From positions 32,001-96,000 of the IMG/VR virus record IMGVR_UViG_3300025669_000020: a stretch of 64,000 bases of DNA; one strand, 5' to 3'. Every line of letters begins with the position of its first letter. Position 1 is the first letter of the stretch. The DNA comes from a virus. The notes beneath the pieces are model-generated. The model was not told the origin of the DNA and did no database searches. It worked only from the letters and a program-made list of their open reading frames with translations. The translations under genes and the position numbers were made by a program. Below are positions 28,062 to 62,505 of this stretch, piece after piece.

Positions 28062-28445
28062 ATGGCACGACTTCGCAAAGGCTCCTTGGCATCTCCCGCT
28101 GATAGGGAGATTCTGGGCCATGTGGCAGCAGCGGAGAGGGCCCTTCGCAAGGCTTTGGATGCTTGTGTCCTAGCTAAGAGGCAATCTCGGTCCCCAGGCA
28201 GCAATCTCCGTATGGCCCGCGTGATCAGAACACAGCGGGATCTACATCGGGTGATGGCGGCTCTGTCAAATGTGCATCGCATCGTACCCCTTCATGACAT
28301 GGGCGAGCAGGATCCGGGTGAGCTGGATCGTGATCTCATGTCCCCAGAAGAGCGTGCAGCCTTTGATGCTGTGGAAGACCAGCGAGAGGACTTGTTGGCA
28401 GCAGTAGCAGAGAAGTTGACGGCAGCCTGGGAGAGTGCTGAATGA
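28062..28445 (+). CDS. hypothetical protein
   Basis: GAGG RBS, ATGA overlap with portal. Confidence 0.6.
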   Translation: MARLRKGSLASPADREILGHVAAAERALRKALDACVLAKRQSRSPGSNLRMARVIRTQRDLHRVMAALSNVHRIVPLHDMGEQDPGELDRDLMSPEERAAFDAVEDQREDLLAAVAEKLTAAWESAE

Positions 28446-30214
28446 CCAAGAACACACTTGAGAAACCTCCGTTCCCGGAGAAGGCCCCCACTTCACAGAA
28501 GCGATTGGCCTCTACCTCCATGTCAGAACCCCAGGAAGGTCGTGTAGTGGCCAAGGTGCGCCCGCGCCCCAAGGTCAAGACAGGAAAGCCCAAGCGGCTG
28601 GACAAGGTCGCTGCAATGCGGGTGGCCTCCTGTGGTGGCGGCGGTCTTTCAACCTCTGGCTCGGAAAGTGCCTCCTTCGGCAACTTCTACAGCCCAGAGC
28701 TGTCCACGGACTTCTTGGAGCTGGCACAGTCCAAGACTGAGCAGTGGGCCTACTACCGCTTCTTCTACAACGCCGATCCCTTTGTGGGACAAGCCATCGA
28801 TCTCCATACGGAGCTGCCCCTCTCCCGTGTACGCTTGGACATCCCCGAGGCCAAGAGCCGTGAATTGGCGATGAAGTCCACCCGGTTCTGTAAGCACTGG
28901 GCGAAGGACATTCAGCTCTTGCGGAAGCTGTGGGGTGTGCTCCATGAGTATCACCTCATTGGGGTCGTCAACATCTACATCGAGGACAACAACCCGGAGA
29001 TGCCGGAAGAGGTCCGAATCGAAAGGGTGCGGGAACTCCAGGAGGACGGCACCCTGGTAGAAGAGGAGCAGGAGCTGGAGGACGCTGACGAAAGGTCCGT
29101 GGCATGGCTCAAGAAGAACTACAAGGGTTGGACAGGGTTCCGTGTCATCCCCCCAGAGCAGGTGCATGTTGAGGGGTTCCCCTCCACAGATCTGAAGCTG
29201 GTGGAGATGATCCCCGATGCCAAGACCCGCAAGCTCGTCATGGCAGCAGACAGCGGGGACGCTCGTTCCGCATCCATCGTCAACACGATGGCTCCTGAGA
29301 TCGTAGAAGCCGCACGCACAGGTCAGAATGTTCCCCTGAACACCGACCCAGATGCAGGCAGCTTCGTCCATGTCCTCGAAAACAAGAAGTGCCCCTACCA
29401 GGATGGTGGGCAGTCCATCTTGGAGCGGTGTATCCGCACCCTGGTGTTCTGGGACAAGCTCCGCCAGGCCAACACCTCCATCGCTTCCCGGCACATGACC
29501 CCTATTCGGGTTGTGTACGCAGAGGACATGGACATGGCCGACGTGGAGAACCTGCGTGACCAGGTGGACATGGCCCTGCAGGATCCCGATTTCTCCATCA
29601 TCGCCAACTTCCAGATCACCTGGGACGAGATGGGGTCGGATCAGCGTCTGCTAGACCTGTCCAGTGAATACGAGTTCGTGCGGCAACAGCTGTTCGCGGG
29701 TTTGGGAGTCACGGAAGGTCTGCTCACAGGTGAGTCCAGCTACTCCGGTGACCGCATCCATCTGGATGTGATCAACACTCGGTACATGCTGCTCCGTGAG
29801 GTCATTCAGGAGTTCGTGGAAGAGCAGCTCCTGAAGCCGATGTGCAGGCGCATGGGCTTTATCGAGGAGGATGAGGACGGCCGTGATGTCGTCATCTACC
29901 CGAAGTTCAGCTTCACACGGTTGGCTCTGCGGGACAACGCGGACACTTTCGATGCCATGCTCAACCTCTACCAGAAGGGGAGCCTGGACATTGATGCCAT
30001 CCTGGAACTGCTGAATATCGATCCGGTGGCCACGAAGGAGAAGCTGGACAGGGACAAGTTCACCCTGAACGATGCTGCCTTCAGCGAGGTGCTTCGAGGC
30101 ATCTACGGTGAGGCAGGACGTGCATTGGCGGCAGATTCCGACGTGTTGGAGATCATTGCCAAGAACCTGGGGCTGAAATATGAGAAGCCCAAGGAAGAAG
30201 GCGGAAGGTACTAG
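28442..30214 (+). CDS. portal protein
   Basis: RFFYNADPFVGQAIDLHTELP, GQSILERC..L, LFAGLGV..LLTG, FVEEQLLKP; follows terL. Confidence 0.85.
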   Translation: MTKNTLEKPPFPEKAPTSQKRLASTSMSEPQEGRVVAKVRPRPKVKTGKPKRLDKVAAMRVASCGGGGLSTSGSESASFGNFYSPELSTDFLELAQSKTEQWAYYRFFYNADPFVGQAIDLHTELPLSRVRLDIPEAKSRELAMKSTRFCKHWAKDIQLLRKLWGVLHEYHLIGVVNIYIEDNNPEMPEEVRIERVRELQEDGTLVEEEQELEDADERSVAWLKKNYKGWTGFRVIPPEQVHVEGFPSTDLKLVEMIPDAKTRKLVMAADSGDARSASIVNTMAPEIVEAARTGQNVPLNTDPDAGSFVHVLENKKCPYQDGGQSILERCIRTLVFWDKLRQANTSIASRHMTPIRVVYAEDMDMADVENLRDQVDMALQDPDFSIIANFQITWDEMGSDQRLLDLSSEYEFVRQQLFAGLGVTEGLLTGESSYSGDRIHLDVINTRYMLLREVIQEFVEEQLLKPMCRRMGFIEEDEDGRDVVIYPKFSFTRLALRDNADTFDAMLNLYQKGSLDIDAILELLNIDPVATKEKLDRDKFTLNDAAFSEVLRGIYGEAGRALAADSDVLEIIAKNLGLKYEKPKEEGGRY

Positions 30215-30223
30215 GAGTAGACC

Positions 30224-30409
30224 ATGACCGACAACCGTGAGACATTTGATGCCCTGTACGACCTGTACCAGAAAGGAGCACTGGACAGCGATCAAGTCCT
30301 GCAGGCGCTCGACATCGACCCCGAAGCCGTCAGGGGAAAGATGGTTCGGGGTGGGGATATTGATGCTCTGGCAGCGATAGACAAGTACATCGCGTCGTTG
30401 GAGAGCTAA
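30224..30409 (+). CDS. stand-alone copy of the portal C-terminal segment
   Basis: DNRETFDALYDLYQKGALD..L.IDP matches portal DNADTFDAMLNLYQKGSLD..L.IDP; own AGGAG RBS. Confidence 0.8.
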   Translation: MTDNRETFDALYDLYQKGALDSDQVLQALDIDPEAVRGKMVRGGDIDALAAIDKYIASLES

Positions 30410-30774
30410 GCCGCTCCCCCGTAGCTGCCGCTCATCAACCGTGCATGGTACTCCTGTGTGTACAGGTGGTAGGCTGCTTCATAGCCTGCGTTTTTGATCA
30501 TCCGGAGCCCTTCCTCATCGGCTTCCCGTTCGTTGTTGGTACGGGCAATGATGTGGCCTGTCTCGTGGGCCAAGATCACCAACAGGTGTTCCTCTGTGAA
30601 CCAGTCCTCTGACAGAATACGGCCGTCCACAACGATGATCGGGGTTTTGATATCCTCACCAAACAAGGCGCAGGCATAGGTGTGGTCAAAGCGGCTGGGC
30701 TCATCCCCTGGATCAATGACCAGGACAGGGATGCTCTTATCGAAGGGGCTCCACGGGGGGCATGTAATTGACAC
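30406..30774 (-). CDS. small zincin metallopeptidase
   Basis: ILAHETGH..EREAD; AAGGAGG RBS before GTG; opposite strand to neighbours. Confidence 0.75.
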   Translation of the reverse strand: MSITCPPWSPFDKSIPVLVIDPGDEPSRFDHTYACALFGEDIKTPIIVVDGRILSEDWFTEEHLLVILAHETGHIIARTNNEREADEEGLRMIKNAGYEAAYHLYTQEYHARLMSGSYGGAA

Positions 30775-30871
30775 AGGGCCTCCTTTTTTACTAAGCGTGC
30801 CTCTACCTAATTGACTCAGGTATCAACCCATTCCCTGAGTTTCCGCCCAAAGAGCAGGGGCCACCGTGGGT

Positions 30872-30902
30872 CGGTATTTCCTCTATGGCTATGGGGGGTC
30901 AG
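30872..30902 (+). promoter_or_regulatory. class B promoter-like motif CGGTA-N6-CTAT
   Basis: Recurrent motif. Confidence 0.6.
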
Positions 30903-30913
30903 AGGTTTAGAAG

Positions 30914-47819: not shown

Positions 47820-48401
47820 TTGACCCATTCCCGTACCGCCGTGAACTACCAGGAGCGTGCAGCTGAATTTGCTGTGGGTGAAGAGGTGGAGACCGTCAAC
47901 GGTACGCATGGGCGCATTGTGGCCCTCTGGCCTGCCATTGGCATGGCTGATGTGGAGTTCCCCAACGGGAGCCGTCGTATCCCTGTAGAAGAGATGTACC
48001 GGGCTCCTGGTAGCTGGGTAGCCTCTCCCCAGGGCGAGACTGTTCCAGGGGGACTCCCCACCGTTTCTGTTCCTGGTGGCTCTGTCGCTCCTATCCCCCC
48101 TCCCGTCAAGAAGACCGCTTCCCCACAGTCCCAAGAGCGCGTTGCTCGGGCTTTTGTGAAGAGGGCTCTCTACTGGGCAGGGAAGGACAGGCAGTACAGG
48201 GCTTCTGGTGATGAGGTCGATTCAGGACTCTACTGCTGCCCCAAGTGCAAGGCACGGGGGGAAGAAATCCCAATGAGACGTGCGATCTACAAGCGGCGCA
48301 ATGGTTGTAGTGATCGGCTCTTGGGATGTCCCTCCTGCATGTTCTTGATCAAGCGGTCGGATGTCCTGAATGACCCCACATACCAGGTAGAGGTTGTCTG
48401 A
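47820..48401 (+). CDS. head-operon protein with SH3-like and Zn-ribbon (CPKC..CPSC) domains
   Basis: VGEEV..GRIV..ADVEF; two CxxC; RVARAFV boundary. Confidence 0.6.
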   Translation: MTHSRTAVNYQERAAEFAVGEEVETVNGTHGRIVALWPAIGMADVEFPNGSRRIPVEEMYRAPGSWVASPQGETVPGGLPTVSVPGGSVAPIPPPVKKTASPQSQERVARAFVKRALYWAGKDRQYRASGDEVDSGLYCCPKCKARGEEIPMRRAIYKRRNGCSDRLLGCPSCMFLIKRSDVLNDPTYQVEVV

Positions 48402-50008: not shown

Positions 50009-51186
50009 TGAGCACGCGTAACCGCATGACGTGGGACGGTGAGGAAAAGCGCGCCTCCCTCCCGGTCGAAGAAGCCGACAAGAGGGCATCCGCCCCCCCC
50101 GCCGTCCCCATGGACCCTGACCACCCCGCCGCCAAGCCCGACCCCGATGAGCATCACTACGAGAATGGTGACACCTCCTCATGGGCCGAAGACCCGACGA
50201 CTGGTCCCTACCCCAACAGCGAGGCCCCCGCGGTTCCCACCGATACGGGCCACCCCGCTGCCAAGCAGGCTGCTGACATTCGTGTCGCCGCTGAGAAGAA
50301 GGCTGCCAAGTGCATCCGCATCGCGCAGACCCTTCTCGTTGGCTTGGATGTCCCCACCATCGAAGACCAGGCCCTTGAGCTGATGGATCTCCCCGATGTC
50401 TCCCTGGACGCTACCCTCCGCCGGATGGAAGCTGCCCATGAGGACGAGGAAGTCCTGCTCCGCAAGATGCTGGCTGGTGATGAGGATGAGGAAGAGGAAG
50501 AGGGCAAGGAAGCCACCGATGTGGAAGCAGCCGATGAGTCCGACAAGGACGCCTCGACTGACCGCATGGCCGAAGTCCTGACCGCTCTCCGCGACCTCCA
50601 GGGTCAGCTCGACACCCTCCGCAACCCCGTGGTCGCTGGCGAAGACGCCGATGACGATGAGGATGAGGATGGGGACAAGGCTGCCGAAGTCGTGGAAGAG
50701 GACGAAGAGGAAGTCCTCTTGGCCCAGATGTTGGCGGAGCTGGACTCCGGCTGCGAAGGCTGCAACGAGAACGCCATGGAAGAGGAAATGGTCGAAGAGG
50801 TGGCAGAGGTCGCCCCCGAAGCCATGATGGACATCGTGGATGATGAGATGATCATCGAAGACGATCCCATGATGGACGCCGAGACTGACATCAGCCTGGA
50901 AATGATGGATGACCCCATGGGTCTGGGCGGCACCAACGACATCCTCCCCGAGGACGAGATGGCACTGGCCAATCTGTTCCACCAGGCAGACGACAAGGTC
51001 GCTGGCGAAGAGGCCAAGGACGACAAGGACGACAAGGAAGCTGCCGAGCGTCCCCAGCCCAAGAAGGCAGGCACTGGCCCCAAGACTCTGGGCAACCAGA
51101 CCATGACCAAGAGCGCCTCCAACGAGATGAACGAACTCGGCAAGCTCTGGGAGACCGCTCCCGACGTGACCAAGTTCTTCGAGTAG
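50008..51186 (+). CDS. capsid scaffolding protein
   Basis: Highly acidic with coiled segments, many KxA sites, C-terminal LWETAPDVTKFFE; between protease and MCP. Confidence 0.65.
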   Translation: MSTRNRMTWDGEEKRASLPVEEADKRASAPPAVPMDPDHPAAKPDPDEHHYENGDTSSWAEDPTTGPYPNSEAPAVPTDTGHPAAKQAADIRVAAEKKAAKCIRIAQTLLVGLDVPTIEDQALELMDLPDVSLDATLRRMEAAHEDEEVLLRKMLAGDEDEEEEEGKEATDVEAADESDKDASTDRMAEVLTALRDLQGQLDTLRNPVVAGEDADDDEDEDGDKAAEVVEEDEEEVLLAQMLAELDSGCEGCNENAMEEEMVEEVAEVAPEAMMDIVDDEMIIEDDPMMDAETDISLEMMDDPMGLGGTNDILPEDEMALANLFHQADDKVAGEEAKDDKDDKEAAERPQPKKAGTGPKTLGNQTMTKSASNEMNELGKLWETAPDVTKFFE

Positions 51187-51239
51187 CACAGTGACTTTCC
51201 AGTAGTGGGGGTTTGTTCCCCCCTCTACAGGAACAAATA

Positions 51240-51274
51240 TCGGCCCGGTAGGACTTTTCTTCCTACCGGGCCGA
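51240..51274 (+). terminator. perfect 14-bp hairpin (terminator or processing signal)
   Basis: TCGGCCCGGTAGGA-N7-TCCTACCGGGCCGA. Confidence 0.7.
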
Positions 51275-51411
51275 AGTTCTTCTCAATATCCCTTCAATAA
51301 CGCGGGGACTTAGTGACGGAACAAGTTTGGATGAGGTTGTCTCACCCAACAGTTTCCGCGCCCCCCCCCACCGTCCCTGTAAACAGGGAGCGGTCGCATG
51401 AAGGAGACAAC

Positions 51412-52086: not shown

Positions 52087-52962
52087 ATGAGCAACGTATC
52101 CAACGCTGCAAAGCAGCAGATCATCTCCGAGTTCATCAAGACCCCCCAGGGTCGCGCTAAGCTCGCAGCCTCGATGACCCAGCCTCTGCGCCTCCGCCGG
52201 GACTACACCGCAGTCGGTCGTAAGACCTTCCTCGTGGAACAGCTCCCTGACGGCGCACTGCCCATCTACGACAAGGACCCCGATGTGACGGCATACGTCG
52301 TTGGTGAAGAAGGCGAGAACATCCTCGCAGTCACCAAGCCTCGCCGTGTCATCTTCCCCCTCTTCGAGATCGCATCCAACCCCGAGATCCCGCTCACGCA
52401 GATCAAGGAACGTCGGTTCGACCTCATCGAGCGCGCCCAGGACTTGGCCCGTGCCCAGATCCAGGCAGCAGAAGACGAGCGTGTCTTCGCAGTGCTCGAC
52501 AGCATCGCCACCAACGGCTTCGACTCCGTGGCTGGCGGCACCAACCCTGACATCCCCGTGGTCGCTCCGATCTCTGGTGCTGTCCTGGCTGATGCCTTCG
52601 CACTGATCGAGCGTCATGACCTTCATGTCGCTCGCGTGTTCATGAACGCTCGGGACTACGCGGACCTCCGCAAGTTCGGTCGCGACATCCTGGACATCGA
52701 ATCCCAGCGCGATTTGTTGAAGACCGGCCTGATGGCAACCCTCTGGGGAGCACAGATCATCGTCAGCCGCCTCGTGCCTGTCGGAACGGTCTATGTGTGT
52801 TGCGAACCGGAAATGTTCGGCCGCATCCCCGTTCGCATTGAGCTGACAGTTCTCAGCGCAGACGACCCGAAGGCTCGCACCATCGGCTTCTCCTGCTTCG
52901 AGAACCTCGGTATCGGCGCGTTCAACCCCCGTGGTCTGACCCGTCTGACGATCACCCGTTAG
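52087..52962 (+). CDS. major capsid protein (HK97 fold)
   Basis: GRAKLAASMTQPLR.RDY.VGRK, FEIASNP, IQAAED, LWGAQIIVS..VP.G, ENLGI..NPRG; C-ending codon bias; followed by terminator. Confidence 0.88.
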   Translation: MSNVSNAAKQQIISEFIKTPQGRAKLAASMTQPLRLRRDYTAVGRKTFLVEQLPDGALPIYDKDPDVTAYVVGEEGENILAVTKPRRVIFPLFEIASNPEIPLTQIKERRFDLIERAQDLARAQIQAAEDERVFAVLDSIATNGFDSVAGGTNPDIPVVAPISGAVLADAFALIERHDLHVARVFMNARDYADLRKFGRDILDIESQRDLLKTGLMATLWGAQIIVSRLVPVGTVYVCCEPEMFGRIPVRIELTVLSADDPKARTIGFSCFENLGIGAFNPRGLTRLTITR

Positions 52963-53157: not shown

Positions 53158-54309
53158 ATGGCATCTGACAAAACAAACACACCTAAAGTATATGGGGCTT
53201 TCCGCAGGGTGGTCACACCAGAGGTCTTGCGAAAGCTGTATTTGGAGCAGAATGATGCCGAGATCGCTGCCCTCTATGGTGTCTCAGATGCCCTGGTCTC
53301 CCGGTACAGAAAGCAGTGGGGGATCCAAACACTGAATCCCAGACAACGAAGGGACCAAGTACGGGAAGCACAGGGTTTGCCCACAATTGAGGATCTGACA
53401 CCTGTGGTCCTTGCAGACATCTATTCCAGAATGGGGGATGCCCAGATCGGGAAGATGTATGGGGTGAGCAAGCCTGTGATCGTGAGGTTGCGGCAGAGGT
53501 GGGGTATCCACACCTTGACCAAAACACAGAGGGCTACACAGGAGGGGCCTTTGTCAGAGGGGCAGCAGGAGACATTGATAGGTGTTCTGCTCGGGGATGG
53601 ACATGTCACAGCACGGGGCTCTTTTCAGGTGGGGCACTCCCATTCCCAGGTGGGGTACGTCCACCATCTGTATGACCTGTGGGCTCCTTTGAGCAGGCCT
53701 GTTCAGTTTGGGGAGAAGATCATGGACAGCGGCACTGTGGCGTACACGTTCCTTCTGCGGACAGCACCACACAAATGGCTCCAGTACCTTCGCAAGCTGT
53801 TTTATCCACAGGGAGTCAAGGTCTTCCCAGAGAGCATCCTGACACACCTGAGTGCCCGGTCCTTGGCCTACTGGTACTTTGATGATGGCCACTTGGATTC
53901 AGGGTTGCCTTCAATTGCACTGGGGGACATCACGGTAGCCGCTGCCGATGATGTGGCACGGCGGGTAGGGAAGCGGTTTGGGTTGGATGCCTACATCCGC
54001 CCACAGTCCACAGAGACCTGTAAAATCCTCGGGGTGCGAGCTGGGAGTACGGATCTGTTCTTTTCCCTTGTCCGCTCTTACCTGATCCCCGAGATGGCCC
54101 ACAAGTACCCTGCCAAACAGCGTCCCGTGGGCACTGTTCCTGTACGCCCCCGCTTGACATTGGAACCTGTGAAGATGCCCCTAGACCTGACAACACGCTC
54201 CAAAGAATGGGGGCATCTGGGAGAAGAGGGGCAGGAGCATCTGTTGGATGATCTGGTGGCTTTCTGGCACCAGCAAGGGTTTCCGTACCGTTTAACAAAA
54301 CTTAGGTGA
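53158..54309 (+). CDS. tandem HTH + LAGLIDADG endonuclease, probably 3'-truncated by IS607
   Basis: Two D..I..YGVS..V..R..WGI repeats; LIGVLLGDG and LAYWYFDDG; ends just after GFPY at the IS boundary. Confidence 0.8.
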   Translation: MASDKTNTPKVYGAFRRVVTPEVLRKLYLEQNDAEIAALYGVSDALVSRYRKQWGIQTLNPRQRRDQVREAQGLPTIEDLTPVVLADIYSRMGDAQIGKMYGVSKPVIVRLRQRWGIHTLTKTQRATQEGPLSEGQQETLIGVLLGDGHVTARGSFQVGHSHSQVGYVHHLYDLWAPLSRPVQFGEKIMDSGTVAYTFLLRTAPHKWLQYLRKLFYPQGVKVFPESILTHLSARSLAYWYFDDGHLDSGLPSIALGDITVAAADDVARRVGKRFGLDAYIRPQSTETCKILGVRAGSTDLFFSLVRSYLIPEMAHKYPAKQRPVGTVPVRPRLTLEPVKMPLDLTTRSKEWGHLGEEGQEHLLDDLVAFWHQQGFPYRLTKLR

Positions 54310-55603
54310 TCCTATGCTCTGTTACCGTCTCTTGCGAGATCGGCCCCCGGTCTGACTCTCCCCGAAGGGAAATGCCGGGTTCCTGCTTCACCGAGGTCTG
54401 CCTCCGTATCGCAAGCGATACGGAAGGTCTCACGTCCTCTCCACAGGCGTTTTTAGTGAGGTCCGACGAACTGGCGGCCCTCAAGATGTTGATCGCAGCA
54501 TTGAGGTCAGCATTGGCCTCGTGCCCGCAAGACAAGCAGCAGAACTCGCTCTGCGAAGTCCGATTGTCCTTCTCGACGTGCCCACACGCTGAACACCGCT
54601 GGCTGGTGTAGTGGGGTGGAACAGCCACGACTTCACAGCCGTAGAGTTTCCCTTTGTACTCCAACAACCTACGGAACTCCCCGAAGGCGGCATCCAGCAC
54701 GACCCGGTTGAGGCCACGTTTTCGCGAGCCTCCCCCAGCCGTCATGTTCCGCACCTTCAAGTCCTCGATCACAACCTTGCCGTGGCTTTTGGCAAGCATA
54801 GTCGTGGCCTTGTGGAGTACATCACGTCGAACATTCCGAACCCGAGCATGGGCACGGGCGAGCTTCGCCCTAGCCTTGCCCCGGTTCTTCGACCCCCTCT
54901 TCTTTCTGCTCACCTCCTGTTGAAGCCTCTTGATCTTCTTTTGCCCTTTCTGGAGGGCTCTCGGATTCTCGATGACCGTCCCGTCCGACAAGGCAGCCAA
55001 CCGAGCCACGCCGAGATCCAGTCCCACAGGGGGGTTCCCGTTCGGCACTGCCGCTCCCACAACTTCGGGCCCGACGACGGAAACGAACCATCGTCCTGCC
55101 TTCTCGGTCACAGAGACCTGAGCATGCTTCCCCCATGGGAGGTAGCCACGCTCTCCCGGCTGGAACTTCACCTTCCCGATGACTGGGAGCTGGACGGTCC
55201 TGTGATCAACCTTGATGGTGCCGGTCAGGCGGAACCCGCCGACGCCCCTGCTCCTCGACTTGAACCTTGGGTACTTGGCTCGTCCTGACAGGAAGTTCTT
55301 GAAGGCCCGGTCGAGATCACGAAGGGCTTCCTGCGGTGCCGCTTTGCTAGCCTCGTACATCCAAGGGATGCCGCCCTCTTCGGGGCTGGCTTTCTTCAAG
55401 ACGTTGAGGTCGCGGTGGAGAGAGATGGCGTTCAGCCATCCTTTCCACTTCTTCGGCTTGCCCTCAGTCACCCATTGCTCGTAGGCGTCCCGATGCTGAC
55501 GGAGCCCCCAGTTATACGCCCACCGAGCGTTGCCCGCATGTTGGAGAAGGGCCTGCCTCTGGCGAGGAGTCGGCCTGATCTCCGCTCGGTAGGCGAGCCT
55601 CAC
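54302..55603 (-). CDS. tnpB: TnpB RNA-guided nuclease (433 aa)
   Basis: RWAYNWGL, YPRFKSR, RuvC GLDLG / VIEDL / NADLNAA, CSAC..CLSC zinc finger. Confidence 0.93.
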   Translation of the reverse strand: MRLAYRAEIRPTPRQRQALLQHAGNARWAYNWGLRQHRDAYEQWVTEGKPKKWKGWLNAISLHRDLNVLKKASPEEGGIPWMYEASKAAPQEALRDLDRAFKNFLSGRAKYPRFKSRSRGVGGFRLTGTIKVDHRTVQLPVIGKVKFQPGERGYLPWGKHAQVSVTEKAGRWFVSVVGPEVVGAAVPNGNPPVGLDLGVARLAALSDGTVIENPRALQKGQKKIKRLQQEVSRKKRGSKNRGKARAKLARAHARVRNVRRDVLHKATTMLAKSHGKVVIEDLKVRNMTAGGGSRKRGLNRVVLDAAFGEFRRLLEYKGKLYGCEVVAVPPHYTSQRCSACGHVEKDNRTSQSEFCCLSCGHEANADLNAAINILRAASSSDLTKNACGEDVRPSVSLAIRRQTSVKQEPGISLRGESDRGPISQETVTEHRIT

Positions 55604-56241
55604 TGGTCGGCCTCGACTTCTGCCTTCGCTCGTTTCCGGTTTTCGGCTGAGCGTCGCCCGTAGATACGAGCGGAGAACGATGCCATCAGCGAGAGGATGT
55701 CTTCGACAAGCTCCTCCTGATAGGACTTCCCGAGAGTCTCCTGTACCCACTCGATCTCGACGCCGTGGCTGTCGAAGTAGGCCGCGAGGAGGCCACCTCC
55801 GAACCGGGAAAGCCGATCTTTGTGTTCGACCACCACCCGGTCGATCTTGTGTTCGTTGACGAGCTTGAACAGCTTGCGGAGTCGAGGGCGGTTCTCCGAC
55901 ATGCCCGAGCCCACGTCTTCCAGGACGGCGACCAGCTTGTAGCCTTGTTTGACACAGTGGGTCGTGACCCGCCCGACCTGACGTTCTAAATCGCCTTTCT
56001 TCTTTTGGTCGTGGCTGCTCACCCGACAGTAGATGGCGGCACGAACCTCGGTGGCTCCTTCCCCTGACACGTCTTGCCCTTGTAGAGCCTCGATGACCGA
56101 GAGCTTGTAGCGACGGTGGTTCCCAAGAGTTCGTTCGGCCACTAGGCGGCCTTCCTCGTCCCAACGACGTAAGGTGTCGGGATGGACACCGAGCATCTCT
56201 GCTGCGGCACGGACACGGAGGAGTCGGTCAGCCTTCGGCAT
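55600..56241 (-). CDS. tnpA: IS607 serine-recombinase transposase
   Basis: MerR-type HTH LGVHPDTLRRW..GNHRRY; YCRVSS, DVGSG, DRLSRFG. Confidence 0.93.
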   Translation of the reverse strand: MPKADRLLRVRAAAEMLGVHPDTLRRWDEEGRLVAERTLGNHRRYKLSVIEALQGQDVSGEGATEVRAAIYCRVSSHDQKKKGDLERQVGRVTTHCVKQGYKLVAVLEDVGSGMSENRPRLRKLFKLVNEHKIDRVVVEHKDRLSRFGGGLLAAYFDSHGVEIEWVQETLGKSYQEELVEDILSLMASFSARIYGRRSAENRKRAKAEVEADQ

Positions 56242-56428
56242 CGGACTCCCCGTCGGGACCGAGAAGACCTTCTGCCTGGAAGACGGAGTGCCATCGGTCG
56301 TACCACTCTTGGAACTCCTCGACGGTCGGCACTTCATCTTTGTCAAAGGGGATCGCGTGCGGGACGGTTCTTCCATCCTCGGTCTTGAATTCGGTTTCGG
56401 TGACTTGGGTGATCACGGTCGGGGCCAT
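56228..56428 (-). CDS. small acidic protein upstream of tnpA
   Basis: AGGAGTAGAGG RBS; overlaps the tnpA start. Confidence 0.65.
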   Translation of the reverse strand: MAPTVITQVTETEFKTEDGRTVPHAIPFDKDEVPTVEEFQEWYDRWHSVFQAEGLLGPDGESDAEG

Positions 56429-56450
56429 CCTCTACTCCTATGGCGGTCGT

Positions 56451-56465
56451 ATAAACGAACTACCG
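56451..56465 (-). promoter_or_regulatory. class B promoter-like motif CGGTA-N6-TTAT
   Basis: Matches the late motif; upstream of the small ORF-tnpA-tnpB operon. Confidence 0.45.
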
Positions 56466-56544
56466 TAGAATACCCGCGTTCACCTAAGTTCCTCGCTACT
56501 GTTCAAGAACCCCTACGAGAAGCCGCATGTCTTCGGTCATGGTC

Positions 56545-57720
56545 TTACCCTCGCACAAGGTAGCGGCGTGCCCAGCCGGGCTTGCAGGACTCGTCCTGTT
56601 CCAGCATGGTGGCCTTGACCCACAGGGTGTTGGCGTAGCGGTTGCGGTTCTTGGTGTTGTCCACGGCGATGCCCACGAGCCCATCGCTCAGGCGGAAGAA
56701 GAAGGCCAGGCCCTCGGCTCCAGCGTTGGCACCCTCAGTGATTCGCACCCAGGCATTCTTGGGGATGTCCGTGGCGGCTTCCACCGCTGCCTCGCGGGCA
56801 ACCTCGCGGGCGTCGGCACGGCGCTGGCACTCAGCCAGGATATCCAAGGCCCACTGCGGGCGGGCATCCCAGCCTTCCTCATCTTCGAGGACGGCCCACA
56901 GATTGTCCACTCCGCTGCTGGTTTCCGTGTCCACGAACACGAGGTTCATGCGATCCTGGGCGGTCTTGGAACCGTCCACGGAGATGCCCACGCGGCCCCC
57001 TTCCTGACTGACCCACAGCACCAGCCCTGACATACCCTTGGGGAACTTGCGGGAGCGGGGGTTGATGCCCTTGACCCAGGAGCCCTTCACGGGGGCGTGT
57101 TGTGCCTTGTAGGTGTCCTTGAGCTGCCGGATGTAGCGGCTACGGCGGTGGGCGAGGTCACGGGCCTTCTGCCACGCTGCATATGCTTCCCGCACTTCGG
57201 GGGTAGCGTCGGGGGTGGCGCTGTTGGGGTACGTCCATCCACGGGTGGAGGCGTAGATGAAGGTGTCGATGCCGTCACCGTCCCACACACCCACGGTGAA
57301 GTCGGAGTCATGGTAGCCGTTCCGCTCGCCCGTGTGGAGCACGAGGCCCACATGGGAGGTTTCCATGTAGAGGGGGCCCATGGTGCGGCAGGCTTCCGTG
57401 TAGCGGTCAACCTTGGTGGGCTGGCCCTCAGCGTCCAGCACCCATTCGCCGTCAGCGTTGACCTGGGCGTCGTACCGGCTTTCCTTGTGGTAGCGGGTCA
57501 GTACACACTCAGGGGTGAGGGTCAGGTCGGCACCGGCACGCCGGGTCTTGGAGTGGGCGCAAAGGCGACCGTGATGGACACCTTCTTCATGTCCATGGTA
57601 GTTGGAGACTCTCTCCACCTTCTTGCCGTTGACGAGCCCACGCTCGTCGGCCTCACCCGCCGCGACGGCGGCATTGTAGGCTTCGTAGGTAGCTTCATTG
57701 GTCATTTGACGGACGGCCAT
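56545..57720 (-). CDS. hypothetical early protein with two KOW/SH3-like repeats
   Basis: KGSWV..G.V.W..RVGI and KNAWV..G..F..LVGI; GGAG RBS; class A promoter upstream. Confidence 0.7.
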   Translation of the reverse strand: MAVRQMTNEATYEAYNAAVAAGEADERGLVNGKKVERVSNYHGHEEGVHHGRLCAHSKTRRAGADLTLTPECVLTRYHKESRYDAQVNADGEWVLDAEGQPTKVDRYTEACRTMGPLYMETSHVGLVLHTGERNGYHDSDFTVGVWDGDGIDTFIYASTRGWTYPNSATPDATPEVREAYAAWQKARDLAHRRSRYIRQLKDTYKAQHAPVKGSWVKGINPRSRKFPKGMSGLVLWVSQEGGRVGISVDGSKTAQDRMNLVFVDTETSSGVDNLWAVLEDEEGWDARPQWALDILAECQRRADAREVAREAAVEAATDIPKNAWVRITEGANAGAEGLAFFFRLSDGLVGIAVDNTKNRNRYANTLWVKATMLEQDESCKPGWARRYLVRG

Positions 57721-57744
57721 TTTGTTTTCTCCGGTGAGGACACC

Positions 57745-57775
57745 TATACTACGCAGGCTCCTTCAGAAATGAACC
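57745..57775 (-). promoter_or_regulatory. class A promoter-like motif GGTTCA-N15-GCGTAGTATA
   Basis: Identical 10-mer and spacing to 61487-61517. Confidence 0.6.
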
Positions 57776-57827
57776 AAAAAGAATCTGATCTTTTTTGTTG
57801 CGCGATCTAGCCGGCCGGTTATTTAGC

Positions 57828-58466
57828 GGGGGCCTGGAAACAGGTTCTCTTTGAAGGCGCAAAAAAGCAACCTCATCCCAACCGGGAGACAGGACGTACC
57901 GTGAACCCGCAAGGGGGAGTGGAAGCGGCCCAGACCCAGGGGGAGATGAGGAGGCAGTGTCCTCCACGGCACATTTCGGGCTGACCCGCCAGGGTTTCAG
58001 TAATTAAGAAGTGTGTTGACAGAGGGCCTTTGGCGGAGTCCTCCAATCCGCCCATTTCGGAATCCATAGGCCATGGGTTGTGAAAGGGCAAGAGCGGGAG
58101 ACAGAAGTCAAGGCACGTTGCAAGGGTAAGGAAAAGGGTTCGTGTGCTCTCACCAGTACGGAACCCTTGGTGAACCCCGCGTAGCAAGCTGTCCCAGGAT
58201 AAGAGTCTACAGCTCTTGTCGGCGGTCATGTCTGTAGGACATGGTAGGTGTACCTGGACGCACCATTGGTCTGGTAGTGAGGTGTTAGGAGTCCGCTGCT
58301 CCCTTGAACGACACCAAAATGGAGTCCCGACAGGTTGATAAACCGAGAAGGGCCCCGACCCCCCAAACCTTCGGGTAGAAGGGGAGGCAAAAACGCAGTT
58401 CCGACCAAATTGGGTGCCCCGTGGCTAACGCTTCGGGGTGCTTCAATTTGGGGGGCTGCGGTTTTT
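57828..58466 (+). ncRNA. candidate large structured non-coding RNA (~640 nt)
   Basis: At least 12 helices with G-U pairs and GAAA/GCAA/UUCG loops; upstream TTGCGC-N16-TATTTA; terminal hairpin plus U-run; no credible ORF. Confidence 0.65.
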
Positions 58467-58578
58467 CAATTGTGTTTGTCTAAGGGGGGTGCTCAGTGAT
58501 GTTATGGGGGTAGCTCTCTGTTATGATGACATTCCTTGGCCCTTCTGAAGGCGTCCCCTGCGTGATTGTGGAGCTTGC

Positions 58579-58944
58579 ATGTCCGATTTCCATAGCCGTT
58601 ACCGAAACACCCCCACATTGGAGTGCTCCTCTGGAACGGCAGGTGGGGATATTTGGAAGCGGTACTATGAGGATCTGTCTGTTGGTGAGCGGGCCACAAT
58701 GTTGTTGTGGGCTCGGATGTACTTGCGTCCGATCAAGACCACAAACTGGCATTGTGACTGTGCTGTCATCAAGGAGCTGTTCGAGGGTAGCTCTGACGGC
58801 TTCAAGGTGACCGTCGACATGGTGCGGGGTGCACTGCTGGAATCTGGCTACACTCCCCATGATCACCGCCGTAAGCTCTGGTACTACAATGTGGGCCAGC
58901 GTGGTCTGAATGCCATGAAAAAGGAGTTGTCCAAGGGGGTCTAG
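58579..58944 (+). CDS. hypothetical protein
   Basis: GGAG RBS, 121 aa. Confidence 0.55.
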   Translation: MSDFHSRYRNTPTLECSSGTAGGDIWKRYYEDLSVGERATMLLWARMYLRPIKTTNWHCDCAVIKELFEGSSDGFKVTVDMVRGALLESGYTPHDHRRKLWYYNVGQRGLNAMKKELSKGV

Positions 58945-58968
58945 ATCCGATCTCGGTTGCGTAGTTAG
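58938..58968 (+). promoter_or_regulatory. class A promoter-like motif GGTCTA-N15-GCGTAGTTAG
   Basis: Spacing conserved. Confidence 0.45.
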
Positions 58969-58993
58969 TAGTGTGCGAACAAGGAGTTTCCAC

Positions 58994-60163
58994 ATGTCTA
59001 AAGCGCAATTCACTGAGAAGGAACAACAGGTTTGGGATAGCCTCCAGGGCACTCTGGGTAATGGTCTCACTACCTGGCAGCAGGAGAACATCGTCCGTGA
59101 CTTGGATGTGTTGTTCGGGCTGCGACCCACCTACATCAACCTGGGTGGCAAGCTCGTGGGGTACGACTGGGATGTGTACAGTCGGAACGTGCACATCAGG
59201 GACGGGTTCTGCACCGCGTACTACCATCCGCGGGACTGTGGTGTCATCACAGGAAGCAGCCCTGACAACTGGGGACAGTGGGCCCGCCTCCTGTTCGGGA
59301 AGAAGTCCCATGCCCATTCCCCCCGTCTGAGTCTCCCCCAGGATCTCTACCAGATGCTGCGGGACAGGGGCTACGCCAAGGTAGATGGTCCCCGTCGCCC
59401 CCATCGGTTCCTGTCTGTGGCCATGGTGTCCTTCTACATCGCGGCACAGACCGACGCATGGGACACCCCCCAGCAGATCGCCATGATGAGCGACATGAAG
59501 AAGATGCTGAAGCTGCACCGTGTCCAGGTCATCGACCTCGTGGTCAATGATGAGGGCGTTCAGCGGGTGCTGTCGGGTCCTCCCAAGGCAGACATCCTGG
59601 GTGCCTCCCCTGCCCCCATCGCCCCCTCTGGTCCCATCGCCCCCTCTGGTCTCATCGTGGTTGACTTGTTGGCTGATGAGATCAAGCTGCGCCGGGATCG
59701 GGAGCAGGCTGCCCATGTCGCCCTGGCATCCTTTGTGGATGATGTCACGGGGCCAGTGGCAGCCCAGGCACCGGAGTCCAGCCTTCTGGATCTCCTGGGT
59801 AGCAACGAGCCCCTTCTCCTGGATGAGCGGGACGATGCCGTGCCTGTCCCCAACCAGGACATCCAGGACTTGTTGGGGGGTTCCCCCGCTGTGGAACAGG
59901 ACGACATCCCCAGTGAGTCCCTCCAGATGGATCTCAGCCAGATGAACCCCCAGCAGCTCCAGGAGATGGTGACAGCCATGGAGCAGGAGCTGGAGAAGCG
60001 CAAGATGGCAGACATGGAGAGCTACTGCTCCAAGGCTATGATCACCGAGGGTGCCATCAACCCCATCCTGCGGACATATGAGACCCTGACGGTGCGCTAC
60101 CCTGATGGGACATGTCAGGAGTACGAGAGGGTACGGGAGAACCTCCTGCGGGATATCGGGTAA
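58994..60163 (+). CDS. hypothetical protein
   Basis: AAGGAG RBS before ATG 58994. Confidence 0.7.
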   Translation: MSKAQFTEKEQQVWDSLQGTLGNGLTTWQQENIVRDLDVLFGLRPTYINLGGKLVGYDWDVYSRNVHIRDGFCTAYYHPRDCGVITGSSPDNWGQWARLLFGKKSHAHSPRLSLPQDLYQMLRDRGYAKVDGPRRPHRFLSVAMVSFYIAAQTDAWDTPQQIAMMSDMKKMLKLHRVQVIDLVVNDEGVQRVLSGPPKADILGASPAPIAPSGPIAPSGLIVVDLLADEIKLRRDREQAAHVALASFVDDVTGPVAAQAPESSLLDLLGSNEPLLLDERDDAVPVPNQDIQDLLGGSPAVEQDDIPSESLQMDLSQMNPQQLQEMVTAMEQELEKRKMADMESYCSKAMITEGAINPILRTYETLTVRYPDGTCQEYERVRENLLRDIG

Positions 60164-61471: not shown

Positions 61472-61486
61472 ACTGCACCTCTCAAT

Positions 61487-61517
61487 TATACTACGCAGAA
61501 TAGGAGGATTCTGAATC
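61487..61517 (-). promoter_or_regulatory. class A promoter-like motif GATTCA-N15-GCGTAGTATA(AT)
   Basis: Matches 57745-57775. Confidence 0.6.
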
Positions 61518-61554: not shown

Positions 61555-62505
61555 ATGCCCCAGCCCATCGTTTTCAAGCCTGGCACCTTCCAAACATTCC
61601 GAGCAACTACCCAGATCGCGATGCCCGAGGGCCTCGACATCCCGAGTGGGTACATCAGCATGGATGCCATCATCCAGTACGATGGACAGACCCTCAAGTA
61701 CGGCGGGGGCACCTACAATGTGTCACAGCTGCGGTCAGCCATCAAGGCTGGGTGGTTCGTGCCCGAGGCGGACACCACCACGAGCTATGTCCCCCAGCCC
61801 GCCAACGTGGCCATCCACAAGGCCACGTCTGCCAATGAGCTGCGTGGGGAGCCCATGACGGTCTCCACCGTGGATGAGGAAGAGCGTGACCTGGGCAGCA
61901 TCAAGTCCATCATGGGGCGCGAGGCCCCGAAGGCTGTGAGTGCTACCGAGGATGGGCAGGTGGTCTCCACGATCAAGACGGCAGCCAAGCAGCACACTGT
62001 CCTCAAGGACAGCCATGCCGCCACCGCAGCCATCCGCAAGCTGGACAACACGCCTCCCCCCAGGGCGGAGGCTGTGAAGAGGGCTGTGGCCACTGGTGAC
62101 GTTCAGGAAGCCAGGATGGGTGAGGGGCTGGAAGACATCCTGCCCGACGCCGAGTCCGCTGGAACTCCCGAGCCCGGTATGGCTGGTGAAGGCGACATGC
62201 CCCACCTGACAGCGGAAGAGAGGGCTGAAGCCCTGCGCCAGGCCCGCCTCTCCAAGATGGCAACCGCCAAGGCAGCTCCTGTGCCGGAGCCGGAGCCCGA
62301 GGCACCCGGTGACAAGGCCCTTCGGGATGCCAAGATCGCCGCACTCCAGGCTGTCATTCCTGGGTTCAAGTGGGACATGAGCGTGCACTGGCGCACCCGC
62401 GTCAAGGTGGCCCTGACCCACAAGGACGATCCGGTCTACATGAACGGCATCATGGCTGTCGAGATAGACGCCGTGAAGAAGCACGTGCAGAAAGAACTGG
62501 CATAG
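61555..62505 (+). CDS. hypothetical protein
   Basis: AGGAGG RBS, strong codon bias. Confidence 0.7.
   Translation: MPQPIVFKPGTFQTFRATTQIAMPEGLDIPSGYISMDAIIQYDGQTLKYGGGTYNVSQLRSAIKAGWFVPEADTTTSYVPQPANVAIHKATSANELRGEPMTVSTVDEEERDLGSIKSIMGREAPKAVSATEDGQVVSTIKTAAKQHTVLKDSHAATAAIRKLDNTPPPRAEAVKRAVATGDVQEARMGEGLEDILPDAESAGTPEPGMAGEGDMPHLTAEERAEALRQARLSKMATAKAAPVPEPEPEAPGDKALRDAKIAALQAVIPGFKWDMSVHWRTRVKVALTHKDDPVYMNGIMAVEIDAVKKHVQKELA

Follow-up and report, generated by a model that had tools for sequence, protein, structure and literature searches.

Between the divergent start codons of two phage genes, p391 and p121, lie 858 bases that carry no evident gene, and the question raised by this locus is whether they encode a large structured RNA. 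A preliminary description had placed there a highly structured non-coding RNA (ncRNA) of about 640 nt, possibly the first of a new class. The location between divergent genes was confirmed, and coordinates and sequence matched those described. The observation itself held in part, in that the stretch is non-coding, carries structure on the + strand and has no match among known families. That it represents a new class of large phage ncRNA was not established; syntenic relatives argue against this, and the stretch is at best a leader or ncRNA of one lineage. All positions below are those of the window, that is, the whole analysed DNA of 64 kb, which corresponds to bases 32001-96000 of a 105.6-kb IMG/VR virus record.

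A non-coding spacer within a variable island

The completeness of the record was estimated by CheckV at 23%, which at a length of 105.6 kb identifies its source as a huge phage. This phage is uncultured and has Bacillus phage G among its relatives: its major capsid protein is 87% identical to that of the uncultured 485-kb phage LR745208.1, 49% to that of Tunturiibacter phage Tunturi_5 and 39% to that of Bacillus phage G, and proteins 88-95% identical to it are encoded in >500 IMG/VR contigs. At least one of the capsid-sharing contigs is, by eye, apparently far more AT-rich near the capsid gene (L082/L045) than the window, whose GC content is 58%. The gene order 3′ of the capsid gene is LAGLIDADG endonuclease, IS607, p391 (−), spacer, p121 (+), p396 (+) and p192, with the following features:

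52087-52962, major capsid protein gene
53158-54309, LAGLIDADG endonuclease gene
54302-56376, − strand, IS607 genes (TnpB with PF01385 and PF07282; serine recombinase)
54302-55609, − strand, tnpB
about 54325-56442, IS607 element, which interrupts a LAGLIDADG-methylase gene
56545-57720, − strand, p391, left flank of the spacer, encoding a conserved phage protein (codon-position GC 0.66/0.48/0.80)
58579-58944, + strand, p121, right flank of the spacer and first gene of the p121-p396 pair, with GGAG 7 nt before the ATG
58973-60163, + strand, p396

One capsid-linked contig (L002) is 100% identical to this phage up to 54289 and then diverges completely; it lacks IS607, and its reading frame runs on into a DNA-methyltransferase-like domain (DPCGGWGGR, SPPY) that is absent in this phage. 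Since the DNA to the right of IS607 is likewise unmatched in L002, the event at 54289-56513 was more than a simple insertion. The p391-p121-p396 cassette is missing from the 80 capsid-linked relatives, and the first gene again in common with them is p316 at 61555. Judged from these comparisons, the spacer sits within a hypervariable island, which appears recombination-prone because L002 diverges from 54290 onward and because post-capsid gene content differs between phages. The DNA immediately 3′ of the capsid gene varies among contigs, with a LAGLIDADG gene found there in 22 of 80 loci (L002-L081).

The TnpB of the IS607 element carries OrfB_IS605 and Cas12f1-like TNB domains. A copy of the element with 77% nucleotide identity (TnpB, 84% at the amino-acid level) is present in the Actinomycetota metagenome-assembled genome (MAG) contig RFZO01000033.1 (L207 2120-4270), and the next-best copy, at 69%, is in a Proteobacteria MAG. 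The former may serve as a weak hint at the host or at exchange partners, although the 17.6-kb contig could itself be viral.

Neither neighbouring protein, p391 or p121, was linked to RNA by family or structure comparisons. Based on its 101 homologues and a match to PHROG 30881 (E 2e-14), p391 is a member of a widespread phage protein family; no Pfam domain was found in it. Full-length relatives are 64%, 49% and 40% identical, while many others share only the core, in which TGERNGYHDSDF...Y.STRGWTYPN is invariant; the relative with 64% identity (P0002) is encoded on a 530-kb (530,589-base) Logan/ENA contig. The C-terminus of p391 harbours two repeats of a small beta-rich motif, KG..G.V.W....G.RVGI. 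For p121, homologues are 61-67% identical, the one at 67% (P0102) being encoded on short ENA contigs (≤1.7 kb) that may share the lineage of P0002. PHROG 9576 was matched at E 1e-8, while a tblastn search against phages returned no match. Its AlphaFold model (pLDDT 80.4) was most similar to winged-helix regulators, all weakly (E ≥0.05). p121 was considered as a possible RNA-binding partner, but these matches, to DNA-binding regulators, lend that idea no support. Single-protein locus searches of IMG/VR with p391 and p396 found nothing close.

The spacer is the largest gene-free stretch seen in a gene-dense window, and the earlier statement that it holds no convincing open reading frame (ORF) was borne out. 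Its codon-position GC is 0.59/0.53/0.59, as compared with about 0.62/0.44/0.75 in real genes, and that of the largest internal ORF (118 aa, − strand) is 0.55/0.56/0.63. Ten internal ORFs had no Pfam or PHROGs match at E up to 1, and none of the seven that were looked up was present in a collection of 15 billion proteins. The spacer is thus non-coding, being neither a protein gene nor a pseudogene.

Folding and predicted anatomy of the stretch

The sequence 57826-58470 folds on the + strand with a z-score of −4.05 against 20 dinucleotide shuffles and of −4.46 against 100 (0 of the 100 fold as well), whereas its reverse complement is at 0.01. Such shuffles set a lenient standard, and 73 further windows of 645 nt from this phage were therefore folded on both strands. 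These controls averaged −0.70 (sd 1.29), and the candidate ranked first among the 74 same-size windows (pooled sd). After refinement of the controls with 70 shuffles, however, window 29671+ reached −4.30 and three others −2.7 to −2.9. This control, 29671-30315 (+), spans the 3′ end of a 590-aa gene (28442-30214) and the start of 30215-30913, where there are small ORFs only. As a control folds about as well as the candidate, fold statistics alone are no proof of function.

Two further measures set the stretch apart. The difference in z between strands (−4.5) is the largest of 37 window pairs (control sd 1.39; extreme control −4.09), and the ensemble diversity is 99 versus 160 ± 39 in shuffles, with 2 of 74 shuffles equally low. 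The earlier suggestion that G-U pairs favour the + strand also held, with 28 such pairs in the native fold versus 21 in shuffles. An excess that is confined to the + strand and depends on G-U pairs points to RNA rather than to DNA.

The excess is unevenly distributed. Without the 78-nt terminal hairpin, the body is at z −2.4 to −2.9 on the + strand (+0.6 to +1.0 on the −), which is within about 1.5 sd of the coding background and not clearly outside it. Among 150-nt windows, those in 57801-58050 and 58151-58400 are near zero, those in 57951-58250 are at −1.9 to −2.8 on the + strand, and 58351-58500 reaches −4.6 on the + and −2.2 on the − strand. The folding excess is therefore real, strand-specific and moderate, with much of it coming from one hairpin. 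Of the "nearly continuous" pairing and "highly structured" RNA first described, what stands is folding that is above chance and specific to the + strand; the wording was overstated, as structure is concentrated in the terminal hairpin and in 57951-58250.

Fourteen helical elements had been listed from the letters alone. Eight were recovered by RNAfold, mostly with high pair probability (p), and the other six are paired otherwise or unpaired in the minimum free energy (MFE) fold: 57950-54/57961-65, 58016-20/58107-11, 58032-37/58047-52, 58247-51/58260-64, 58281-86/58310-15 and ACC-TTCG-GGT. The resulting anatomy, together with the flanking blocks, is as follows:

57738-57781, − strand, conserved block 5′ of p391, containing CTGCGTAGTATA at 57744-57757; about 75% identity with the L155-type spacer
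57798-57825, + strand, weak promoter-like TTGCGC-N16-TATTTA ahead of the structured stretch, of putative function
57828-57849, + strand, predicted 5′ hairpin, GAAA tetraloop (57828-36/57841-49, p 0.91 in RNAfold)
57867-57955, + strand, domain 1, predicted long irregular hairpin with a CCC-GCAA-GGG cap (p 0.6-0.98; local 150-nt z −0.3)
57961-58025, + strand, domain 2, predicted hairpin with an 11-bp stem (p 0.95-0.99)
58032-58297, + strand, domain 3, predicted multi-branched domain with GGCGGA/UCCGCU as its closing helix (p 0.91; inner hairpins 0.95-0.99)
58298-58384, + strand, three predicted short hairpins, with GGUU-GAUA-AACC and a possible C-UUCG-G tetraloop (p 0.4-0.98; local z about 0)
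58389-58470, + strand, predicted 78-nt terminal hairpin (58389-58466, about 34 bp), 3′ arm ending UUUUU (inner stems p 0.94-1.0)
58474-58512, + strand, conserved block GTTTGTCTAAG..YAGTGAT..GGGGTA just 3′ of the hairpin, which aligns with the L155-type spacer

In domain 1, the helix 57871-77/57945-51 (p 0.98) encloses the CCC-GCAA-GGG cap. The stem of domain 2 is 57967-77/58008-18 (p 0.99), and the window 57951-58100 is at z −2.8 on the + and +0.2 on the − strand. Domain 3 includes a 14-bp hairpin at 58134-58168 (58134-41/58161-68, p 0.99) and the helices 58061-67/58073-79 (p 0.98), 58198-206/58212-20 (p 0.59) and 58227-33/58237-43 (p 0.95); windows from 58001 to 58250 are at z −1.9 to −2.7 on the + strand and about 0 on the −. 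Further 3′, the helix 58333-36/58341-44 has p 0.98.

The strongest element is the terminal hairpin with its U-run, directly 5′ of the conserved GTTTGTCTAAG block and p121, and it is predicted to be a terminator-like or processing-site hairpin. A terminator-like site was called by the scan at 58440-58456 with the tail TGCGGTTTTT, where the shuffle expectation is 1.7 sites in the scanned region. A pairing of the terminal U-run with an A-run further 5′ has p 0.28. Most pairs of the hairpin are Watson-Crick, and it forms on the − strand as well.

At the 5′ side, the sigma70-like element noted earlier is indeed there as a sequence, but only 6 of its 12 positions fit the sigma-70 consensus, and the promoter scan called no site anywhere in 57300-59000. 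MAFFT placed TTGCGC-N16-TATTTA opposite TTGTCC-N16-TAGTAG of the relatives described below, outside the significantly aligning blocks. The two conserved blocks lie back to back around the stretch. With two mismatches allowed, the 14-nt CTGCGTAGTATA pattern has four matches in the window, a number reached by 0 of 100 shuffles; two are on the − strand (57744-57757 and 61486-61499), where the start codons of two genes follow the pattern at about 30-40 nt, and it is kept in the L155-type relatives. It is a candidate −10 region of a phage promoter, and the block 57738-57781 is, by its position and conservation, probably the promoter of p391. GTTTGTCTAAG, which occurs once in the window, is identical in the L155-type spacer, and the block 58474-58512 is a candidate promoter or operator of p121.

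Known families, homologues and syntenic relatives

No known RNA family was found. In the whole window, cmscan against Rfam 15 (4227 families, gathering thresholds) gave 0 matches, and the sole hit of a permissive search of 57600-58700 (E up to 10) was a 13-bit fragment of Xist on the − strand; ARAGORN found neither tRNA nor tmRNA in the 64 kb. The earlier failure to recognize RNase P, tmRNA or group I/II introns thus agrees with the searches. The covariance models of ROOL, GOLLD, OLE, raiA and HEARO had no match even at E 10, and a riboswitch, as currently modelled, was rejected for lack of an Rfam match. The same holds for a group I/II intron, the stretch lying, moreover, between two divergent start codons and outside any reading frame.

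The nearby IS607 calls for comparison with the TnpB-associated omega/reRNA (RAGATH-18-derived guides), which is likewise a structured non-coding RNA near an IS607 tnpB. According to PMC11061315, such guides are located 3′ of tnpB, at its end, and share its strand. The stretch is on the + strand, opposite to tnpB, and 1.3 kb beyond the other end of IS607 with p391 in between; it is also four to five times longer, and no RAGATH-18 match to Rfam was present in the window. A TnpB guide was therefore rejected.

Homologues of the body were equally absent from every collection searched. Using blastn, none was found in 50,697 phage records or 72,556 plasmids, and blastn plus nhmmer found none in the 80 capsid-linked IMG/VR loci, in the 64 IMG/VR and 52 metagenome loci holding p391 relatives, or in 80 genome loci that encode the IS607 TnpB. 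Twenty related virus records, searched whole by BLAST, and three MAGs carrying the IS607 were negative as well, and 401 Actinomycetota genomes yielded only matches of 28-44 nt, at chance level. One match, in L082 (E 0.008), spans 26 nt within a gene of a phage with low GC content and was dismissed as chance. A covariance model of 57961-58185 (R1, 68 pairs) had no match over 21 virus records, LR745208.1 and 100 loci. Motif scans of IMG/VR returned 48 hits for GTTTGTCTAAG..YAGTGAT and 15 for CGGGAGACAG..GTGAACCC, none of which resembled the RNA or its neighbours. No second copy of the stretch was found in this record. Internal duplication was rejected, as repeats were short and non-significant, and so were mimicry of the anti-Shine-Dalgarno sequence and of the p391 start region, for which matches were short and non-significant too. 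Literature searches turned up no account of an RNA of this kind from huge phages.

The most informative comparison was with three metagenome contigs (L154-L156) that carry the p391 of 49% identity and keep the order p391, p121, p396, their p121 and p396 proteins being 62% and 53% identical to those of this phage, respectively. Their p391-p121 spacer is 325 nt versus 858 nt in this phage. The alignment is limited to its two ends, 57738-57781 and 58474-58512; between them lie 692 nt in this phage versus 137 nt in the relatives, with no significant similarity. About 550 nt of spacer are thus missing from these contigs, which shows that most of the stretch is dispensable.

Folding of the shorter spacer is likewise stronger on the p121-sense strand (z −3.26 versus −1.61), and its dominant element is a hairpin of about 70 nt that immediately precedes the GTTTGTCTAAG block and is unrelated in sequence to that of this phage. 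As this hairpin lacks a U-run, termination does not count among the conserved features. A G-rich 5′ hairpin, GGGGUG..CACCCC, was seen by eye at a matching offset after the promoter-like TAGTAG and is a possible counterpart, though the RNAfold MFE fold of the relatives' spacer pairs these bases otherwise. Since the spacers of both lineages fold with a long hairpin, a structured spacer is shared, while the 550-nt multi-domain body is not. With no second member in any collection searched and with syntenic relatives that lack the body, the proposal of a new class did not stand.

Alternative explanations for the stretch

We regard 57782-58473 as non-coding DNA by which the spacer between the divergent p391 and p121-p396 units has expanded in this lineage, and tentatively, at somewhat less than even confidence, as a leader with structure or a terminated transcript that precedes the p121 operon. 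Transcription of the + strand would initiate at the weak promoter near 57798-57825, with a start at about 57826; the transcript would open with the small 5′ hairpin (57828-57849), which may be stabilizing, continue into the moderately structured body and end or pause at the long hairpin and U-run (58389-58470). The conserved block and the ribosome-binding site of p121 would follow. Such a leader may affect p121-p396 in cis, whether by termination, attenuation or antitermination or as a processing or stability element, and membership in a conserved trans-acting RNA family is no part of this reading.

The leader is supported by the non-coding status of the stretch, its folding on the + strand only, its defined ensemble and the hairpin with U-run ahead of p121, as well as by the long hairpin at the same place in the relatives' spacer, where p121-sense folding is the stronger. 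Against it are the weak promoter hexamers that the scan passed over, the missing U-run in the relatives, the partial pairing of the U-run with the A-run here, a stem of 34 bp, longer than is typical of an intrinsic terminator, a 550-nt body that far exceeds a leader's needs, and the control window of similar z.

In phage lambda, a short terminated transcript (pR′-tR′) precedes the late genes. From its anatomy, the stretch would resemble this '6S' leader in having a promoter just 5′, an end at a hairpin with U-run and an operon ahead. It differs in being about three times longer with a multi-domain body, and neither an antiterminator protein nor a qut/put-like site was identified here; the lack of a U-run in the relatives is a further difference.

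It is rather unlikely, yet still to be weighed seriously, that the stretch is functionless or nearly so, a recent insertion or decayed remnant in the recombination-prone island whose folding would reflect the flanking hairpins plus chance. The island is in flux, as seen from the IS607 within the LAGLIDADG-methylase gene and from the break in L002, the cassette has no counterpart in the capsid-linked relatives and the syntenic ones lack the extra 550 nt. Imperfect 11-nt direct repeats, GCAAAAA(A/C)GCA, at 57859 and 58387 (528 nt apart) are near the inferred edges of the extra DNA, although within the region they are non-significant (blastn E 10). In its G-rich composition the stretch is like the sense strand of genes on the + strand, and one control window reaches z −4.3. 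What inert DNA accounts for poorly is the strand asymmetry, the most extreme of the 37 window pairs, and the well-defined ensemble. Nor does any frame-specific ORF hold a protein-family trace, or does a second copy, as is usual for a mobile element, occur here or elsewhere; moreover, 0.5 kb of inert DNA is rarely retained by phages.

We consider it improbable that the stretch is an independent ornate ncRNA (about 640 nt) that acts in trans, has a promoter and an intrinsic terminator of its own and is the first of a new family. Size, a multi-domain fold, high-probability helices, GAAA, GCAA and possible UUCG loops, folding on the + strand only, a terminator-like 3′ end and the length of the gene-free stretch would all fit, and the lack of an Rfam match would make such an RNA, if real, undescribed. 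However, homologues are absent from phages, plasmids, IMG/VR, the 116 loci of p391 relatives and 401 Actinomycetota genomes, the syntenic contigs are without the body, the z of the body lies near the coding background, and two long sub-regions (57801-58050 and 58151-58400) show no excess folding. Likeness to ROOL, GOLLD and OLE is one of size and setting only (about 600 nt, a phage, a multi-branched predicted fold, GNRA loops); unlike them, the stretch has no covariance-model match at E 10, no tRNA neighbours, no homologue family and only a modest excess in the body. We likewise doubt that it is a stand-alone ncRNA beside the head-gene cluster with family members in further phage genomes, for example on the 530-kb P0002 contig.

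A DNA-level element, such as a replication origin, packaging site or recombination site made of cruciform-forming inverted repeats, is very improbable: inverted repeats are numerous in this intergenic stretch between divergent promoters, and the mostly Watson-Crick terminal hairpin forms on the − strand too (58351-58500, z −2.2), but the z on that strand is 0.0 for the whole region and +0.6 to +1.0 for the body, so that the excess depends on G-U pairs, and neither an AT-rich stretch nor an iteron family is present.

The testable part of the finding is small and consists of the back-to-back promoter-like blocks, their conserved arrangement and the long hairpin ahead of the p121 operon. To our knowledge, few large structured RNAs are known in huge phages, and the roles of ROOL and GOLLD are still open; should the body turn out to be a conserved RNA, these phages would gain one more large structured RNA. 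The result matters mainly as a caution, as a fold z near −4 is reached in this phage by an ordinary control window.

Two other sites of the window fold well. The strongest fold overall is at 51120-51400 on the − strand (z −7.07; 200 shuffles), upstream of the capsid gene, where a perfect 14-bp hairpin, GGCCCGGUAGGA..UCCUACCGGGCC, is present in the gap between a gene ending at 51186 and one starting at 51313; it is probably a bidirectional terminator. An imperfect hairpin of about 200 nt at 48135-48400 lies ahead of the + strand gene at 48401 and is overlapped by a 193-aa + strand ORF (47820-48401); as it folds well on both strands (z −3.5 and −3.2), it is a DNA-level inverted repeat.
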